From: Xylographa opegraphella
Lineage: Eukaryota
Length of the DNA: 28,478 nt
Direction of reading: 5' to 3'
Assembly: GCA_022813865.1 (NCBI GenBank)
Contig: JALDZX010000013.1
Span: forward strand, 434,001-462,478
The notes under the pieces were generated by a model. That model searched no databases. It had not been told where the DNA came from and saw only the letters and a program-made list of their open reading frames with translations. Positions 1,916 through 23,910 of this stretch are shown here, in pieces (positions within the stretch are counted from its first letter, which is position 1; each line of letters opens with the position of its first letter). Position numbers and translations under genes: made by a program.

Positions 1916-3857
1916 ATGGCCGACCATAGTGCCTCCGAACTTGAGAGCAGAATGGACTCGACGAAGCTCGCTGATGCTGCTGCCCAGGTAGAACCCCAAG
2001 AGATTTCCAAGAGTGCTGCGAAGAAGGCCGCCAAGCAAGAGAAGCTGGCCGCGGAGAAAGCGAACAAATCTACGACAAACACCACCAAGGAAGCCGGTCG
2101 GGCAGAGGCCAGGAAAGCCGTGAGCAAAACACCAAAGAAGAAAATAGAAGGAGCGGCCTTAATTGGGATCGACGTGTCGAAGGAGGAGGACTTTTCTGGC
2201 TGGTATCAACAGGTCTTGACCAAAGGAGACATGCTAGACTACTACGATGTATCCGGTTGCTACATTCTAAAGGTATAGACCTACTCGCAACTGTTCTTCT
2301 TCTCTAACGGCAGCCCAGCCTCCGTCGTACTTCATCTGGGAAGAAATACAGCAATGGTTCAACCACCGGATAAAAAAGCTTGGCGTCAAAAACTGCTCAT
2401 TTCCAATGTTTGTGTCACAAGATGTTCTGGAGAGGGAGAAAGATCATATCGAGGGCTTCGCGGCAGAGGTCGCATGGGTTACACATGCGTATGTCAATTC
2501 CTCCTAGAGCCTCAGCTATAAGCATGGACTAACTGCATTCGCAGGGGCAACACTCCGCTTGAGAAGAAGATTGCCATTCGTCCCACATCAGAAACTGTCA
2601 TGTACCCTTACTACGCAAAATGGATACGAAGCCACCGTGATCTACCCCTAAGACTAAACCAGTGGAATTCTGTAGTGAGGTGGGAGTTCAAGCATCCACA
2701 GCCGTTCCTCCGTACTCGCGAGTTTCTTTGGCAAGAAGGTCATACTGCTCATCTCACTCAGGAAGGAGCGGGAGAAGAAGTCCTTCAAATACTGGACTAC
2801 TATGCTGGTGTCTACGAAGACTTACTAGCCGTTCCCGTCGTCAAGGGTAGGAAAACGGAGAAAGAAAAGTTTGCGGGAGGGCTATATACCACAACTGTGG
2901 AAGGCTATATCCCTGCAACTGGCCGTGGAATCCAAGGAGGTACTTCGCATTGTCTAGGCCAAAATTTCAGTAAAATGTTTGGGATCACAGTCGAAGATCC
3001 TTCTGCCAAAGAAGGCGAAAAGAAAGCCCCATTGCATGTCTGGCAAAATTCATGGGGTCTGTCGACACGTACTATAGGGGTTATGGTAATGATTCATGGA
3101 GATAATCGAGGCCTAGTGATTCCTCCACGAGTTGCAGAATACCAGGTTGTGATCATTCCGGTCGGTGTTACAGCCAAAATGAGCGACGAAGACAAGAATG
3201 GGCTCTACGACCAAGTCGACGCACTTGCTACGGTTCTCCGGGCATGTGACTTACGTGTCGAAACAGACAAACGTGACGGCTACTCCCCAGGATGGAAATT
3301 CAACGAGTGGGAGCAAAAGGGGGTACCGCTACGCCTCGAGTTCGGACCGGGAGAGTCAGATGGGCATTTTGTCACTACATCCCGACGAGACATTGCTGGA
3401 AAGGAGGGTAAAGGCGCCATTCCCATAACTGAGATTAACACGGAAATCCCAGCCTTGCTTGAGAAGATCCAAGCAGATCTCTACGCCCGAGCTGATGAGA
3501 CTTTCAAGGCTCACCGCAAGGTCGTCACGTCGTGGGACGAGTTTGTACCGGCGCTGAATGCTAAGAATGTAGTTCTGATTCCACATTGTTTAACAGAAAA
3601 GTGTGAAGATGAGATCAAAGAGCTGAGTGCAAGGAAAGAAATCGGTGACGAGACCCCGCAGGACGAGAAAGCGCCGAGTATGGGAGCGAAGAGTTTATGC
3701 ATCCCGTTTGATCAGCCTGAGGGTATTGTGAAGGGAGAGACGAAATGCACGAATCCGCAGTGTAAGAACCTGGCGGAGCAGTGGTGTATGTTTGGAAGTA
3801 AGTACTCATCCTTGTGGTTTTCTAGAGTGATACTAATAATTTACAGGGAGCTACTAG
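1916..3857 (+). CDS. Cytosolic prolyl-tRNA synthetase (eukaryote/archaeal type)
   Basis: Exons 1916-2272, 2319-2488, 2545-3797 and 3847-3857. Motifs [33 protein letters not shown]...[33 protein letters not shown] and C-terminal MFGRSY*. An alternative start is possible at 1952. Confidence 0.96.
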
Positions 3858-5928
3858 CTTCTCCAACGTCGCTTGTCAAGGATCAGCGTGCGGCTATCTC
3901 CTAGGTGGTCAGCTGTTGACAGGCGAATTGTTCGATCTGAGATAACTCGTATACTCGTATATCCGATAACTCGATCTACGAAGAGATACGAAGAAGGAAA
4001 TATGGCACGCGTGTGTTCAGCGAGTCAATGACTACGTCGAGTTTCGGCCCACTCAATGGTCCTGATAGGCCTATAACTAGAGCAGCACGAACCTGAAAGA
4101 TACTCAAGTACCATCCCCGTAACCCTCTCAACTACAGCCTTGAACTGTGACAAGAAAGCTTGGCTGTGTCCTAGATCAGACTCAGGTGTTCTGACCTATA
4201 CGTTAAGTAGTGACCACCCTAGTTGTGGTTGTTAGAATAAGGCCAACTGCATGTAAAATAGGTTGACCAGTCGTGCAGGTCCGGTTTCTGATTCAGCATG
4301 CATATTATTGATTCTTGGCTGGAAGTCCGAAGGTACCACCATCGTTTCAACAATACTTTTCTTTTCTTTCTCTGCCTATCTCTTTCCGTCCAACCATACC
4401 AATGTGCTATAATGGTTTCGTTGAGTGACTTCCAAAAGCGTTTGTTCTCAATTTCCAGTTTTTCAGTAGAGGCGCTGAATGAACTAGTCCTCGATGTATC
4501 CTCCTGAAAAATAAACATAATTCTGATTACTGATGTTGTTTCTCTTCTGTGGCTTATTTGATGGTGTTGCTACTAAAACTTACTTGTGAAGTCGGAAATC
4601 ACAAGTCTGGTCTCTCTACAGATCAGACAAGGCAAGGAGGTGGGCAGGGTAAGACTTGCATTCTTGGAAAAGTTCAAGCTAACTTCACAGGTAAGGCCAT
4701 TCGGGGCTGGTGAGATTGCTTTTAAGTGTTATATCACTGATCGGCGGTGGTGGTTCGTACTTGTTAAGCCGGGACCAGTGGCAGATCTAAGAATAGCGCA
4801 AATGAGTAGAGGACGGCAGGTAGGCGATATTACAATACCCAGCAAAGGGCGAGCATCAACGAAGATGGTGGCTACCCAAGTAACAAATTGACCGTTACGT
4901 GTTTCAGCTTGAAGTGTTGCAGATGGAAGTCGCTTGCAGAGCAGGATGAGTGGATATTGCATGGAAGCCAGACGAAAGCTGTAAGGTGTCGTGCAATCGA
5001 GGCGTCAACCAGGTATCTTGTGGAAAATCGACATCTACGATGCAAGCCGCCGGCAGATTTCACGAAATTACTTGTAAGGTAAATGCATCCCACCAGGAAA
5101 AAGGCCATATCAAATTACACAAGAGACAGCAGGTGAACCTCCTCTATTGTAGGCAAAGTTTCTCAATGGTTTTCAGCCGGAAATACGCATGCACCGTAGC
5201 TCCCGGTACTACCGAGCCAGCTCTGAAGGATATTGAACGGCTCTTGACTCATCGGCAACTGCAAGGTGGCTTTTGGATACATATTACTCTATTCGACAAG
5301 AGCCCTAAGGTATTCAATAAGCTCGCTTGTTTCTGTATCGCATTTGGCTGGTCGAAAGCTGGTCTGGTCAGGGGGCCGCCTGCACTGGTATACTCGATGT
5401 CAGTCAATCTTCTGGCATTTAGCCATAAACACAATACATAGCACGATAGTAACGCAAACGGAAGCCAAAGATTCGTGAATTTGAAGAATGGCGATCCGTA
5501 TACTCTTGTACTACTGATTCTGAGGGTTTCGAATATCGCAAACCCCTCATCTTCCCTTGTAGACAAGCTGTATATGTGCTTGCAGTCAAAGTCAGTCAGC
5601 ACACTGCTAACAAAGTCGAGCAGCAATCCTGGTAGTCATATTGTAGGAAAAGCCGCTGAGCTTGAGGGGCTGTGATAACTTGATAATGAATGGACGGTTC
5701 GATTACCCACCGAACCTGAAAGTTAACTCCCACATGCAATATGCTGCTACCACATTTACAACAATATCTAAGCCACAATAATATGATCAAATGTTTGGAT
5801 GAGACCATATAGCTCGACCCAAACGATACAAAGGTGTTGAAAGCCATCGTTGATTTCCAAAGATTGTTACATAATGATAGATATTAGAATCTGATTTACA
5901 CAGCTAATTCTTCGGTTGTGTAGTGTAG

Positions 5929-5981
5929 GTGGGTTATCGGCGTCCCAACGTTGTATTTCTCCCTGCTAACTGAGGCAAAAG
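5929..5981 (+). other. Spliceosomal-type intron 1 in the tRNA D-loop (between positions 15 and 16), 53 nt
   Basis: Donor GTGGGT, identical to the Ras intron 1 donor at 10416. Branch GCTAAC at 5965-5970, acceptor AAG at 5979-5981. Removal restores the A14-G15-A16-G18-G19 D-loop. Confidence 0.78.
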
Positions 5982-5999
5982 AGGTTATCACATCAGATT

Positions 6000-6050
6000 G
6001 TACGAGTTCGATTGACTGCCACTTTCGCTCAAAATACTAATTCCCCTCAG
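6000..6050 (+). other. Spliceosomal-type intron 2 in the tRNA anticodon loop (between positions 33 and 34), 51 nt
   Basis: Donor GTACGA, branch TACTAAT at 6035-6041, pyrimidine tract TCCCCT and acceptor CAG. Removal joins U33 to the UUG anticodon. Confidence 0.85.
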
Positions 6051-6054
6051 TTGA

Positions 6055-6061
6055 ATGAATC
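6055..6061 (+). other. Canonical 37/38 tRNA intron (ATGAATC, 7 nt)
   Basis: Lies one base 3' of the anticodon. Its antepenultimate A can pair with U32 (anticodon-intron pair). Confidence 0.75.
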
Positions 6062-6108
6062 TTCTGGATACCCCGGTTCGAGTCCGGGCACGACCTTAGT
6101 GCTATTAA

Positions 6109-6114
6109 TTTTTT
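6109..6114 (+). terminator. RNA polymerase III T6 terminator
   Basis: TTTTTT begins 13 nt after the tRNA discriminator base. Confidence 0.7.
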
Positions 6115-6271
6115 GGTGGATCTTTTGGCACTTTCCGCGAAAACAAGATGTGTGACGCTATCCTAAAGTGATTATTTATTAGTTCATCCTAAGATAGGAC
6201 TTAACTTACCTCTACGACCTCAGTTTCAATCCCGTCCATCACACCTAAGACTGCTGTTCGACGACGCAATA

Positions 6272-6956
6272 ATGGTGCGCAATGTCCAAAGCAAGCATAT
6301 CGCGTATCTAATACGTCTCGCAGGCCTCAGAGTCTCGCCTTTACACCTTCTCACCAGCAACAACTGCTGATTTACGCAAATTCCGCCTCGGGACATCTCG
6401 AGCCAAAGATCCTCAAGCGGTGATATGTACGTCTTGAGTAATCATGTTGATGTATGCCGAGCCAGGCCCCTTTCTTATATGTCAGCAAGCAAGTCATTCA
6501 AAGACTCAATGACGTTTTCTTGCAAGCATATGGCCCAGGCTGACTATTGTTCTTCAGATCAAATTGACAAGCACACTCTCGAGATCGCTCAAGCGGACGA
6601 TGTCACATACACGAATATGCAGGAGCTAGCAAACGAGCTTCCAGCTCATTCACCACGCTATGTATTACTTAGTTATCCGTTGACTCTGGTGTGTGCTATT
6701 TTACTTTGTTCTTCACGGATCAAGAAGATGGACTGAAAGAATGGCATATGGATCTAACATGGTGAAGACTTCCGGAAGATTATCAGTACCATACGTGATG
6801 GTATACTATTTACCAGTAACATGCAATGCAGAGCTGCGCATGCTGTACGCCGGAGCAAAGGAGCTGATGCGCAACACCGCGGAGGTCGGGAGGGTCATAG
6901 AAATGGCAGATCCGGAAGATCTAGAGGAGATTGAAAAGAGGCTCGGAGGGGAGTAG
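6272..6956 (+). CDS. Glia maturation factor (GMF/Aim7-like) ADF-homology protein, Arp2/3 regulator
   Basis: Exons 6272-6274 (ATG only), 6324-6426, 6558-6688 and 6768-6956. Product MASESRLYTFS...LRKFRLGTSRAKDPQAVIYQIDK...ELANELPAHSPRYVLLSYPLTL-TSGRLSVPYVMVYYLP...RMLYAGAKELMRN. Confidence 0.92.
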
Positions 6957-12068: not shown

Positions 12069-12083
12069 NNNNNNNNNNNNNNN
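12069..12083. other. Assembly gap (15 N) next to a poly-C tract
   Basis: Run of N in the sequence. Confidence 0.99.
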
Positions 12084-13313
12084 NCCCCCCCCCCCCTCTC
12101 TCGCCGCCAACCCGATCCTCGATGCTCCAGCGCCACCGGTGCCGAAAACCCGCCAGCACTGTCAATCTCAAATCCATCGTCTGCAGCGCCGTTTCATCCT
12201 GCCTGCTCCTCATCGCAGCGGCCCTTCCCTTCCCTCCCGCCCCGTTACGTGGTCGCGATCGCACCTCCCTGCAGGGGGCTGTGCCACGGTGGCGGGGGGG
12301 AAAAACGCTAGCGGCTTACCTCGGGAGCGGCCACTTGCGGCGTTGATAAAAGCAGTGTGGGATAGGCATTAGGTAGACAACAGGAGACTCGAGAGCAGCG
12401 TTGACGACGACGGGTGCCAAGGCGTGCGAATACATACCTCGGGTGTATGATTGCGGTTTCATGCTCACGTACGGAGAAGATACTGTGGAGCAGGGAAATC
12501 GAGGTCCCAGACGCGGACTCGGAAGGCCGGGGATGGGTCCGCTAGTCGGTTAGCCGACGGGGAAGGGTTGCGCTGCTGGAAGCCACCACGTGCAGTATGG
12601 GGATGCATATACGTGTGGGAAATGGGCTTGATCGATGGGTGGAGAGATGCTTCGTACATGTCCGGGGGTTGCAACCCGTCCATGGCAGGCATCGTTATCG
12701 TGCTACTATCCGGAATAGTCATGGTAAGTGCATGGTGGGGGAGACGTGGCGTGGCGTGGTGGGATATCTGATGGAGTGTGGAGTGTAGAACGTGGCGGTA
12801 TGGGAGGCTGCTCGGTGGTGGTGGTTGACGTGCATATACCTACGTAAAGGTGTGGGTGGGATGCATGTTGGTGGACTGGAAGTGAGATTGATATGGAAGG
12901 GCGTCCTTTATTAGTGGTGGAATTGTCGTCGCGGCTGCATTGCCTGATGAGGATTGGCGAAAAAGGCAATCATCACTGGGCCTCTCTCAAATCTTGAATT
13001 GCCGGATTGAGGTCTTCGGCTGAAAGCCACGTGGTCATGCGTGAGGATGGAGGTTCTGAAACATCGTCTACTGTCCATATTGCCCCGATTGGCGGGAATT
13101 CTACGTTTTTCCACTGTGAGCCTCACGTGTAGCCAGCTAGCGTCTGTCGGGGTCTACATTAATCGCAAGTGCGGTTGCAGCTGAGTGGTCGCAGACAGCT
13201 TAGCCTTTATCTGTGAGACTGCTGAACTTCCCGTTGAAGACTCAAATACATCCACGACTTCCAATATGATTATTATTCAGCATGGTGTGGGCGAACTTTC
13301 ACAAGAAGCTGCT

Positions 13314-14189: not shown

Positions 14190-15438
14190 CTATATTTTGG
14201 CGGGCTTTTTGTATAAGTAGTTGCCAGTACCGGCCTATTGCATTGTCAGTTCCAACCAGTTTTTATATTAAGGAGTAAGCCATTCGAGATAGTCCAGAGG
14301 TTACTCAGTCATGAACTCACTTGGTGGTTTGGGAAGATCAACATATCCTTCATAGATTGTCAGTGGCGCAACCTCCTATACTATTCATGATCACTTACAG
14401 CAACCACAACATTCTCTCTCTGTCCTGCGGCAAATACTATAGACTCTGCTATGTCGTCAGGAGTAAGTGGCTCACAATTTCTAGCTATTCGTCAGTTTGT
14501 TAATATGCGAAAAGACGTGCTGCTCACGCATAGACAGCGTCTGCCTTTGCCTTGTCGCCATAGAATCGAATTACGGAAAATTCCTGAATATGTAAGAGAG
14601 AACCCGCAGGAATTTTTTTCACGGAGTGCCTCACTGTCTCCACCTGACCAGGGTCGACCTCCATGACTCTTATTCTCGTCGATATAAGCTCTCTTCGGAG
14701 GGCATCTGTAAAGGCTCGTATGCATGCTTTGGTAGCACAATATATGCTTCCACCAGGGTATGGCTCCCGTCCTGCAATACTACCAATGTTTATTATATCT
14801 CCTCGACCGCCTTCATCGCGCTTCTTGTATAACTTCAAGACCTCTTGTGTCATGTTGATAAGTCCTAACACATTGGTGTCGAACATGACTTTTATGTCTT
14901 GGCCTATTATTGAGGGGGCTTGTGCATTCCCTTTGACCAATCCTCTATATGTATCATAGTCAGCGTCATTATTCCAAAGGAGTGGAGACTTCATCAATGC
15001 CTACGCGTTGTTGACTAATACATCGATCTCCTTAAATTCCTCTGGTAGATTCTCTACAAAACCTGCAACTTCTTCCTCATTACTCACATCCAGCTTAAGG
15101 GGCAACATCTTCACTCCATCTCCCACCTCCTTCTTGATGTCTTCTGCAATCTGTTTCAATGTGTCAATCCTCCGTGCGGTCAGGATCAGCTTGAGATTCT
15201 TCGGTGACGTCCTTGCAAACTCGAATGCGGTAGAGCGGCCGATGCCGCTAGAGGCTCCCGTTATCACAATTGTTTTGCCCTCGAGGCGCTTTCCCATCGC
15301 CGAAGTCATTATGCCCCTGAAAATATTGCGGCGTGACGACAAATGCCAGAACTGGGATAAGAGCGACTTTTTGAGGTTGAGAGCTCCGGAGGCTGCAGAA
15401 AGGCTTGAAGAGTGTAAGATTCGCTGTAGAGCAAGCAT
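14190..15438 (-). CDS. NADP-dependent short-chain dehydrogenase (YMR226C/YdfG-like 3-hydroxy acid/serine dehydrogenase)
   Basis: Exons 15438-15005, 14944-14635, 14583-14528, 14480-14399, 14347-14321 and 14234-14190. Motifs TGASSGIG, LVNNAG, NIGSIAG, YCATK, DPGQVETEFS and PLTPDDIAE. Alternative starts at 15309 and 15297. Confidence 0.93.
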
Positions 15439-19821: not shown

Positions 19822-22800
19822 ATGGCGGCTTCCTGGATTCCCTTCATATTCGCAACTCTTCAATCTCAGGTGAGCATCAACTCCCAGTTCTTCCACGACC
19901 CATATTACGAACCTATAAACTGTATATACATTTGAAACTGACCTCTGTTTCCTAGGCTTACAAACTCGGAAGATATGTTGCTGCCGGTTCGTGGTGTGAA
20001 ATAACCCGAGAAGAGAAGGTATTCATAAAATGTCCTACGTGTAATGATCATGACTAAGCCAAACAGATTGATTTCCAAAACTCGGATGGCCTCAATTTGC
20101 AGCCACTAAGAGAATACTTGCTTGTCGACATTGCTTTGGTAAATTTACGCAGTGCCATGTACGGCTCAGGTCGATTTCTTCTGCCTTCCGAATCACCGAC
20201 ACAAGCAATATCTACGTACTGTGCAATATACAATGAAGCAGCTGGATGGTTCGAGGTTTCGGTACGAGGAAACCTTCGAACACATCACGCCAAGCAAGAA
20301 CTTGGGGTATCAGAGGGTATACTACTCGAACCCAACGATACGGAGGATTGTTTTTTACCACATTCCCAAGCATACCCGCTGAACAACACTACCGCTGCAG
20401 GCGGTATGGAATATTCATCTTCTTCGGAGGCACAAGGCATCATTGGCACTCCGGAGATATCGAAACCTTCTGTGGTTCCTATCCCATCGAAAACTTCTGC
20501 AACGAAGGACAATGTAGCAGCTCCAAACACAGTGGCCCTTGTCCTTAAACATTCCACGGAGTCACTTTCTCTATCCTCTTGTATTTTGGACGCTCCTTCC
20601 GTCCCAGCTTATGCATACTACGAATCGAAATCTGGCTGTGACTGGGCTTCAATGCTAGATGATGAAGATGAGGAAGAGTCCTACGCTTCTCCATATTATC
20701 ATTCGCCCAGTGGAGAGGACTGCGCGATGATTGATGAAGAATACCGGTTCGAACACGATGACAGAGTGGTAACTCCTCCTGTTATGCTGCCTGATACGCC
20801 TGACCACGTTGCAATCGATGGATCTCGAACCTGTGTATCTACTGCTCCAATGGTCGAAACGTCTCCACGGCATACGAGTTCTGTCCTCGTCGCTGTAAAC
20901 AAGAAACATCCTTCGGCCACTAACATTGGTATCGAGTCCCCATTGCCAAACCTTCGGCAGTACATCCCGTAAGATACCACAGCAGCTTTTGAGAAGGTTC
21001 TGGCTGAGCTTGATCCGAAACATCGCCAAACTATGGCTGGTCGCCGATACGCTCAAGGCGTTGTTCACTGGCAGTGGATGTGCGAGGCCTCTGAACAACT
21101 ATTGGCGTCAGGGCGAGGCCGGCGAACTCGCTTGGAGGAATCCGATCGGTCAGTAGGCTGGTTTGGGGTGGACATTCATGAGAATAGATCTGCGAAAGTG
21201 TCTCATAGCCCCGCCTCTGATCCTCGAGTTCCAAAATCTCCGAAGCCCATCCATCACATCAACTTCGCTGGCCAGCCTGTACATGAGAGGACATACACTA
21301 GCCCAGCAGTATCATTTTGGGCAGCCACGAGTGAGGGTTTGAAGAATCGAATTGATCACAATGGGTCACTGCTCCGTTCGGTGATTTCTTCAAACGCCGG
21401 AAAAATGCTTGACCCGTTCATCGGTCCATCAGTTGCACCAGAACTGAAAGGTTCCAAGCTTAAGGAGTGGGTCACCGGAGCCGTCGATATTGTTTACCAG
21501 ACATATGGAACTTGGATAGAGGATGAGCTAGAACCCGATGATGATCGCCGAATTGCTGATGTGCCATGCTGTTTTGCTGGATGTGAGGATATAAACTGTC
21601 CTCCAATTCCATATATCATCGACCTCTCGGACGGAGACATTGTGGTGAATGATGATGGTCGTGTTCATCTGGGACAAAAAAGCCAAAGAGGAAATGTGTT
21701 CGACTGCGCTCGAAGCTTTGCAGGGTGACGAATATTAGCAGGATGAACGCAGAAGACCATACTCCTCTATCTACCTACCCCGAGAACTTCTACACAGTGC
21801 CATCAGATGCTCTCGATGCTCTGTTTATGGAGACTACTCCGGAGGTGTCTATCAATATGCCGGCGCTGATACTTGAGACGATCAGCAGAGACAAACTTGA
21901 GTACCAAGCTACTTCTTCGCCTATACCAAAGGAGACCGCATTCACGACTCAGCAAATGTCAGATCGACTATTCGCTTTATTTTCTGAATTCGACGAAGCC
22001 GATGACATGGCTTCAAGCGAAGCAGAGCCATTAAGTGCCGAAGATGAAAATATATCATCACTGTCTACAATATGGGAGCATACAGAAGATCAGGAGTACG
22101 AAATGTCGACGTGCTTTCGGATCGACCTGGACTTATCGATGAAAGCCACATTACAAATCCCTGTCACTAATTTCAAGGACGCCTCAGAGGATAGAGCTCC
22201 AGCTTTGTTCGGGTTAGATGATACTTTGCTCCTACAAGCTTCTGTAGTCATCTCCAGTGGTACGAGACAATGGAAGTCTTTCACTATACAGACGGAAATG
22301 TTCGATGCCGTGGTACAGGAAAATCCTGAAGTCGAATCAAGCTCACAGTCAAAGACATATTCAGATCCTTCATCCACATATTACTGACAACACTAATATG
22401 TCAAGTGATCGTATGCTACACCAAGCAATTATCTCTATACAGGATCTGGCTATCTTGAAGATGTTCAGCCTCTTCAGTTTTGACCGCGCGACTAATGAAA
22501 GCAATTTATCACTATCCTTCGCTACAAAAAAAAGACGTTTTATATGCTTATATTGCGATGCATGAACCAGGTGTTAGCTCCCGAGCTACATCACTGGTCA
22601 CAGATGCTTACAAGACAAAAACGGTTGATGCGATTACATGGCCACTCGAGGAATTGGGTTACTTTGCTATCAAGGCAAATGAGGAGGAAGCACCCATTAT
22701 TCAGAGCACTCCTATTATTATAACTAACGGGAAAATTCCGTTTCCTACCAACATCGAAGTACAGTCACCAGAATGGGCCGAAGAGTACTGGATAAACCAC

Positions 22801-23910
22801 GAATCCCATATCAATTTCGAGCACAATAGGAGTTCAAGTGGCTCTCTGACCGACTCTGATCTCGAAGGATTCAGTTCTTCCCTTTGTAGCACAGAGTCTA
22901 CTGGATCTGATGCCTCTAATGGCACAAATGAATCAGATGGATCAAAATTTCTCACCCCGGATTCGGTGCCGAACTCTTTCAACTCATTCAAACCACCGAG
23001 AAAATATATAAATGGCCAAGGATTTGATATAAATGATTTACTGGAAACGGATGACACAGTAACTGAATCTGTTTTTGATGCAGGGCAAGGTTCAACTGAG
23101 CGATTTGTACGACCTTGTCAACCAGTGTCTCATATGTCTCATTTTGTGCTAAATGGACTTCTTGTCGCAATGCACCACAAGTTCAAGGACGAGGATAAGT
23201 ACTTCAACTATCATTCTGACGATGAACTGAAGGTTCGAAATGGCGATATCGAGAATTTTTAGTCATCCGATTCTAATGTAAAATCACATAACGACGTATG
23301 TATGCACGGATCAATTAGTGATAGCTTGATCGATTCTGATCCTGTTACCACGACACCTCAAGCTACGAAGGTCTCGACTTATGCAGCACCTCAATTCGGG
23401 AGAAGCTCATTTATTGGCCATGTGATTATTTCCAGAACAAATGATGACGACCAGGCTGTGACAATGAAGGCAGCCGTGGAGGAAAAGCAAATCAAGAACG
23501 GTTCGACACCAGGAATTACTTTAATACGGTCTCCTACAAGCCAAGATTGGGCGAGTCTCAGCCAACCATCCATTTTAATGCTTCCAACTGAAGCACCATC
23601 AATAGGGACGAATGTTTTGGGTTCATCGACTGAAGAGACAAAATTGAGTCTGGGGGAGCGACGGGCAAGAGAACGGGATACTCCCGAAACCCCAGGAATA
23701 CGAACCACTGCTGGAAAAGCCGAAGGTCAAGGCTTCGTACGGTGTCCCAACATCCTGACATCGCGCCTTGAAGATGCAATCGTTGAACCCGTGCCTTTCG
23801 ACTGTGGTGTAGGCTTCTCCCTACCGGTCCCAAACCTCTCCGATTCTTTGCTATATGGTAGTATTGCAGGATATTTGGGGTATCGAATTTTTACTGCATT
23901 ACGACGGTGA
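19822..23910 (+). pseudogene. Large uncharacterised acidic/Ser-rich gene interrupted by in-frame stops and frameshifts
   Basis: Clean 5' exons 19822-19869 and 19956-20018, then 20067 onward (GT-AG introns with branch sites). In-frame TAA at 20970-20972 and TAG at 23260-23262, each followed by open frame. Frameshift near the A6 run at 21676-21681 and further frame changes at about 22380-22535. Confidence 0.72.

Follow-up and report, generated by a model that had tools for sequence, protein, structure and literature searches.

Textbooks separate two nuclear splicing systems, the spliceosome for RNA polymerase II (Pol II) transcripts and an endonuclease with a ligase for tRNAs. Among tRNA genes, those of the archaeal and Cyanidioschyzon type have introns in the D loop and the anticodon loop and are missed by standard tRNA finders; an RNA structure defines these introns, and a single endonuclease cuts them all. 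Transcripts of RNA polymerase III (Pol III) are not normally spliced. A recent review keeps the division between the spliceosome and tRNA splicing (PMC10275265), and in a 2025 paper spliceosomal introns, placed in Pol II transcripts, form a class of their own, unrelated to that of tRNA introns. The multi-intron tRNA genes with non-canonical introns of the bulge-helix-bulge type are described from archaea and the red alga Cyanidioschyzon (PMC3978253). On the other side of the division, spliceosomal action on transcripts that are not made by Pol II has fungal precedent in the U6 and lichen rDNA cases. Introns of the mRNA type occur in the U6 snRNA genes of S. pombe and other fungi (Tani and Ohshima, 1989, 1991; Canzler et al., 2016; PMC5855946, PMC5832005), and the rDNA of lichen-forming ascomycetes is reported to contain ectopic spliceosomal introns, one of which yeast excised from Pol I transcripts (Bhattacharya et al., 2000, in PMC8527467). 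In a literature search that left most subscription journals outside its coverage, no paper was found on spliceosomal introns in tRNA genes.

The locus described here lies in a window of 28,478 nt, the whole stretch of DNA that was analyzed, from Xylographa opegraphella (assembly GCA_022813865.1, contig JALDZX010000013.1, positions 434,001 to 462,478). It can be read as a tRNA-Gln(UUG) gene in four exons, with the following features in window positions:

5914..5928, + strand: tRNA exon 1, 15 nt, with the acceptor 5' strand, U8-A9, the D-stem 5' strand, and D-loop bases 1-2
5929..5981, + strand: intron 1, of spliceosomal type, in the D loop, 53 nt, starting with GTGGGT and ending with AAG
5982..5999, + strand: tRNA exon 2, 18 nt, with the remaining D loop, the D-stem 3' strand, and base 26
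6000..6050, + strand: intron 2, of spliceosomal type, between U33 and U34, 51 nt, starting with GTACGA and ending with CCTCAG
6051..6054, + strand: tRNA exon 3, TTGA, 4 nt, consisting of the anticodon UUG and A37
6055..6061, + strand: canonical tRNA intron at 37/38, ATGAATC, 7 nt
6062..6096, + strand: tRNA exon 4, 35 nt, starting with TTCTGG, with base 38, the anticodon-stem 3' strand, the variable loop, and the T arm
6075-6085, + strand: B box GGTTCGAGTCC in the T arm of exon 4
6109..6114, + strand: run of six T that begins 13 nt past the discriminator and is likely to terminate RNA polymerase III

Exon 2 also supplies the anticodon-stem 5' strand together with U32 (T5998) and U33 (T5999) and ends in CAGATT, and the remainder of exon 4 is the acceptor 3' strand and the discriminator T6096. 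In silico removal of 5929-5981, 6000-6050, and 6055-6061 yields a tRNA-Gln(UUG) of 72 nt, counting the discriminator, which ARAGORN folds into a standard cloverleaf, and each of the partial removals, with any insert left in place, leads to a wrong or odd ARAGORN call. For the unspliced locus, a default ARAGORN scan of the window reported no tRNA, and Rfam gave no match at the gathering score across the whole window and none at E values up to 10 in 5850-6150. A reading made earlier from the sequence only had proposed this four-exon anatomy, and it is borne out, as the coordinates can be read directly and removal of the three inserts restores the tRNA. The flanks that it gave for exon 3, a CAG on the 5' side (ending at 6050) and ATGAATC on the 3' side (6055-6061), are likewise present. 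Its term “micro-exon” for TTGA suits the final product; it does not suit the spliceosome, for which the 3' exon of intron 2 extends over the 7-nt tRNA intron and all of exon 4. It is exon 2 (18 nt) that is truly short as an internal exon, and skipping of this exon is a risk because it is flanked by two introns.

The gene resembles the intron-bearing U6 genes in that a short GT..AG intron with a branch site interrupts a small, structured Pol III RNA gene. Removal by the spliceosome is known for U6, whereas here it is suggested by the DNA; moreover, the U6 host is itself a part of the spliceosome, whereas the host here is a tRNA, for which the reverse-splicing origin proposed for U6 offers no obvious route. 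The present gene also differs from U6 in having two such introns and, 4 nt from the second, a tRNA intron spliced by proteins. With the lichen rDNA introns it shares the same kind of fungus and a host RNA that has a structural role in translation and is transcribed by a polymerase other than Pol II, but there the host is an rRNA transcribed by Pol I, whereas here it is a tRNA, probably transcribed by Pol III, that would also need the tRNA endonuclease. Like the archaeal and Cyanidioschyzon genes, it comes in several pieces, has introns in the D loop and the anticodon loop, and is missed by standard finders, although its long inserts are without bulge-helix-bulge structure and carry spliceosomal signals. 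What is distinctive is the apparent combination of two spliceosomal-type introns and a tRNA intron in one gene, with the anticodon isolated on 4 nt.

The borders of the inserts at 6000-6050 and 6055-6061 cannot be slid without a change in the product, since the flanking bases differ, and they are fixed by the need for a 7-nt anticodon loop, as in the metagenome relative L003 (see below). Because these borders are set by the tRNA loop, the GT and AG of intron 2 were not chosen by eye. An alternative anticodon, GUA, made from the first bases of intron 2 was rejected, as it would place a pyrimidine at position 37 on a Gln-type body. The insert at 5929-5981 has three equivalent registers, one of which gives GT..AG. 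A second GT..AG register for intron 1 (5933-5983), which would produce a D loop of 10 nt versus 8 nt in the relatives, is possible because GGTTATC occurs at both 5932-5938 and 5983-5989. The start of intron 1, GTGGGTTATC (5929-5938), duplicates the GGTTATC of the D loop and stem located 3' of the intron, and owing to this repeat the DNA of 5921-5938 still resembles an intact A box and D loop (TAGTGTAGGTGGGTTATC) despite the split gene. The repeat is absent from the relatives L001-L003 and may be an aid to TFIIIC binding, a trace of the origin of intron 1, or a product of chance.

The two long inserts were compared with eight mRNA introns of the same window, the joints of which were verified by open reading across them. 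Four of these are in CCT1, where they match the window's own protein model exactly, two are in ProRS (the second at 2489-2544) and were placed using the Xylographa homologue, and two are in FAD synthase and were placed using representative homologues. Protein-guided joints were chosen, as the GT..AG pairs enumerated between neighboring open frames were too ambiguous, and all eight joints give open frames resembling the homologues. The reference introns are 46-60 nt long, and each of the eight has a purine at +3, a CTRAY motif with 9-12 nt after the branch A, and a YAG end. Intron 2, with its CTAAT branch motif (branch A at 6040, 10 nt from the end) followed by a pyrimidine run and CAG, agrees with this set on all counts, including length (51 nt) and 5' site (GTAC..). 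Intron 1 (53 nt, GTGGGT, and CTAAC with the branch A at 5969, 12 nt from the end) agrees except for its AAG end, and its 5' site is close to the GTGGGC of one FAD synthase intron. When both strands of the window were scanned for the signal set GT[AG]...CTRAY with 9-13 nt after the branch A...AG, it was present in 3 of 56,722 segments of 51 nt and in 4 of 56,714 segments of 53 nt; with so few segments carrying it, a chance origin of the signals in the inserts is unlikely. The agreement with local introns in length, 5' site, branch motif, and spacing upholds the proposal that both GT..AG inserts are of the mRNA-intron kind, and both are probably spliceosomal-type introns that the spliceosome would remove. 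Sizes of 51 and 53 nt are below that needed for a group I or group II core, and Rfam gave no match to such a catalytic core either at the gathering score window-wide or at E values up to 10 in 5850-6150. Repeated intron families of the introner kind have many near-identical copies in a genome; within the 28-kb window, no second copy of either long insert was found, and the two inserts are unlike each other (z 1.1).

The third insert, 6055-6061, sits after UUG-A37 and before U38. U32 lies opposite the antepenultimate A6059 and U33 opposite A6058, and T6060, C6061, and T6062 make a 3-nt bulge at the 3' site. The canonical tRNA intron described in the literature is part of a bulge-helix-loop in which C32 or U32 pairs with an antepenultimate A or G (PMC10275265), and the 7-nt insert shares with the introns cut by SEN/TSEN the 37/38 position, the U32-antepenultimate-A pair, and the 3-nt 3' bulge as that review presents them. 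Its assignment as a canonical tRNA intron therefore holds, by position and by presence of the pair. The proposed capacity of A6059 and A6058 to pair with U32 and U33 also holds in that the bases face each other, though nearest-neighbor energies do not favor the pairs (–16.1 to –17.4 kcal/mol with the pair versus –20.8 kcal/mol without it), so that the U32-A6059 pair is possible but not predicted by energy. The insert differs from the canonical introns of the relatives in length (7 nt versus 16 and 19 nt), and in the primary transcript U32 and U33 would be separated from it by the 51-nt spliceosomal-type intron.

A metagenome search with a pattern for D-loop inserts of 35-65 nt, in which GT and AG were not demanded, returned four loci (L001-L004). 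Three of the four are tRNA-Gln genes, L003 with the anticodon UUG and the nearly identical pair L001 and L002 with CUG, and are probably of fungal origin; L004 is an ordinary tRNA-Val with a chance match to the pattern upstream and was rejected. ARAGORN called no tRNA in L001, L002, or L003. The D-loop inserts of these three genes, 64 nt and 59 nt long, lie directly 3' of GTGTAG at the same site as intron 1, begin with GT, contain CTAAT, and end with AG, and at 37/38 each of the genes also has a tRNA intron, 16 or 19 nt in length. Beyond these signals the D-loop introns are unlike in sequence (z at most 2.2), and no common structure or sequence was found among them; such a pattern, with site and signals constant and the interior free to vary, is expected of a spliceosomal intron on which selection acts. 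In L001 and L002 the D-loop insert ends with two AGs 4 bases apart, CTAG and then GTAG; use of the first would leave a D loop of 12 nt, and use of the second the standard 8 nt. The same D-loop site is filled in both tRNA-Gln(UUG) and tRNA-Gln(CUG) genes, so that the intron is either older than the split between these genes or was copied between them.

The exons of the gene were also compared with these relatives. Exon 1 is identical to that of L003, as is the acceptor stem, and the spliced products of the two genes are identical at 64 of 72 positions (89%). One anticodon-stem pair is altered on both sides relative to L003 (A-U versus G-C), and L001 has a two-sided change in one acceptor pair. 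Selection on the folded tRNA is suggested both by these two-sided changes in stem pairs and by the similarity of the product to that of L003. In blastn and tblastx comparisons, the 3' exon is all that L001-L003 have in common with the window, except for a single short tblastx match well away from the tRNA, and because their flanks are not syntenic they are noted as family members rather than positional orthologues. That short match joins positions 12-107 of L003 to window positions 14399-14494 (approximately 32 residues, 81% identical), in a frame 8 kb from the tRNA in the window, and suggests that L003 comes from a related fungus in which the genes are arranged differently.

The insert at 33/34, on the other hand, is absent from L001-L003, and a strict pattern, requiring GT..AG at this site, found 0 loci in the metagenome and the genome contigs, which is weak evidence given that fungal DNA is scarce there. 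A looser pattern matched two loci among the genome contigs, both in bacterial MAGs and without an ARAGORN tRNA call, where approximately four chance matches were expected, and these were rejected; one of the two, L005, also proved on reading to be ordinary non-tRNA sequence. The assignment of intron 2 is suggested by its own sequence signals. The restricted occurrence of this insert and the weak AAG acceptor of intron 1 would suit a disabled or decaying copy, in which the D-loop intron is old and spliceable, the 33/34 insert is recent and is removed poorly or not at all, and another gene supplies tRNA-Gln(UUG). We regard such decay as rather unlikely, as all exons are intact, the two-sided differences from L003 and L001 leave the stem pairs intact, and the run of T at the terminator is retained. 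Moreover, intron 2 has borders fixed by the tRNA and yet combines GT, CAG, a CTAAT at the local spacing, and a pyrimidine run, whereas only three of the 51-nt segments scanned carry the signal set. A working nuclear tRNA-Gln(UUG) gene, from the transcript of which the spliceosome would remove both long introns before the endonuclease and ligase remove the 7-nt one, is the reading that we consider probable on balance.

The transcription signals are consistent with a Pol III unit. Runs of T follow the relatives' genes as well (T7 at 10 nt in L003, T8 at 5 nt in L001, and T9 at 5 nt in L002). Within the four long introns compared (intron 1, intron 2, and the D-loop inserts of L001 and L003), T runs do not exceed three, a shortness that by estimate is not significant at these lengths, and one local mRNA intron has a run of six T. 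The gene is probably transcribed by Pol III as one precursor of approximately 200 nt. In the proposed pathway, Pol III would transcribe the whole gene as a single precursor, and the nuclear spliceosome would excise both long introns (53 nt and 51 nt). The remaining body of 79 nt, retaining the 7-nt intron at 37/38, would fold into the tRNA shape, upon which the tRNA splicing endonuclease would measure from the mature domain, use U32-A6059, and cut at 6054/6055 and 6061/6062, and tRNA ligase would join the halves.

The order in which the spliceosome precedes the endonuclease is plausible for two reasons. TSEN54 is described as a ruler on the mature tRNA domain (PMC10275265), and a spliceosome-first order fits because the endonuclease depends on the mature body, the ruler of which should be disturbed by inserts of 53 nt in the D loop and 51 nt in the anticodon loop. 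Minimum-free-energy folds of the precursor were uninformative on accessibility. The second reason is location. S. cerevisiae and S. pombe bracket the lineage of the present fungus. In both of these yeasts the tRNA endonuclease is reported on the cytoplasmic face of mitochondria, and if this location holds here, only the order of spliceosome, export, and then endonuclease would be productive, since a precursor exported with intron 2 could never meet the spliceosome again. On a precursor that retains intron 2, the endonuclease would be expected to cut approximately 4 bases into that intron, counting from U33, and a possible cost of mis-ordering is that such a miscut, followed by ligation, would give a Gln-bodied tRNA with GUA, the tyrosine anticodon, and C37.

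With the gene and its intron types as described, the two machines could also act without an obligatory order, or the tRNA could be released from a longer Pol II transcript. In the latter case, splicing would be co-transcriptional and of the mRNA type, with release by RNase P and RNase Z, for example from read-through to the cofilin-like gene, a same-strand gene matching Cofilin_ADF that starts approximately 450 nt downstream. The spliceosome needs just a 5' site, a branch site, and a 3' site, and before the endonuclease has cut, the 3' exon available to it is longer than 4 nt. Vertebrate tRNA splicing is described as nuclear (PMC10275265), so compartments need not set the order everywhere. These alternatives are unlikely in our view: the mitochondrial endonuclease of both ascomycete yeasts studied argues for an order, as does the 51-nt insert ahead of the 5' cut, which should upset a ruler that measures the body, and the run of six T 13 nt after the tRNA, like the runs of T7-T9 at 5-10 nt in the relatives, fits Pol III units rather than read-through by Pol II.

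The working gene, as preferred above, has also been seen as a possible control point linking Gln(CAA) decoding to spliceosome activity; this part of the sequence-only reading is speculation and overstates the case. It is distinctly doubtful whether the gene is, in full, a working CAA decoder with an anticodon loop that can be assembled only by two unrelated machines, in two compartments, and in a fixed order. If it were, then together with the lichen rDNA introns tRNA introns of this sort would link the supply of parts for translation to spliceosome capacity, and that link would be part of the lifestyle of lichen fungi, for which a slow-growing, stress-tolerant way of life has been proposed (PMC8527467).

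A single protein endonuclease could in principle excise both long inserts in the bulge-helix-bulge manner, without any spliceosome, and multi-intron tRNA genes with non-canonical introns exist in archaea and in the alga Cyanidioschyzon (PMC3978253). However, when each long insert was put through a simple purpose-made test for a bulge-helix-bulge, none of its 16 registers gave more than three of the four base pairs of the central helix. Both inserts also carry the full set of local mRNA-intron signals, and those of the relatives keep just GT, the branch motif, and AG, without a common structure or sequence, which makes removal by the endonuclease alone very improbable.

A misparse of the locus, finally, can hardly be the answer: ARAGORN with the -i option calls a tRNA-Gly(CCC) with a single 101-nt intron at 5914-6096 of the unspliced locus, but this parse, which was rejected, has a poor D stem and depends on two G-U pairs in the anticodon stem and an extra arm of 17 nt, whereas the Gln parse is a standard cloverleaf closely similar to the tRNA-Gln(UUG) of L003.

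A tRNA that needs both machines would break the division between the spliceosome and tRNA splicing. Such a gene would also be a natural substrate for studying recruitment of the spliceosome to a Pol III transcript that is short, lacks a cap, and is highly structured, and its architecture makes the order of the pathway testable through precursor intermediates. Moreover, genes of this kind would explain tRNA genes that are missed by standard tools in some fungal genomes.

The tRNA locus is intergenic, between ProRS, which ends near 3805, and a small gene of the Cofilin_ADF type from about 6560. The latter is represented by two open frames (6371-6956, + strand) approximately 450 nt downstream of the tRNA and on the same strand. 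Further along the window there are 16 N at 12069-12084, an assembly gap or masked stretch. At 20097-23910 (+ strand), five long open frames stand in a chain that represents either a rapidly evolving gene or no gene at all; the three frames tested gave no Pfam match, and the open frame at 22480-23262 had no homologue at E 1e-20 among longer proteins. At the protein level, ProRS matches Lecanoromycetes with 96% identity and CCT1 with up to 98%, the best named matches being in Xylographa, Lambiella, and Trapelia, and the genes of the window have short GT..AG introns; the window accordingly belongs to a lichen-forming ascomycete near Xylographa. Several NCBI records of close homologues of the ProRS gene (1952-3805) are named “ribose-phosphate pyrophosphokinase 1”, although the Pfam domains are those of ProRS, and this naming looks like a propagated misannotation.
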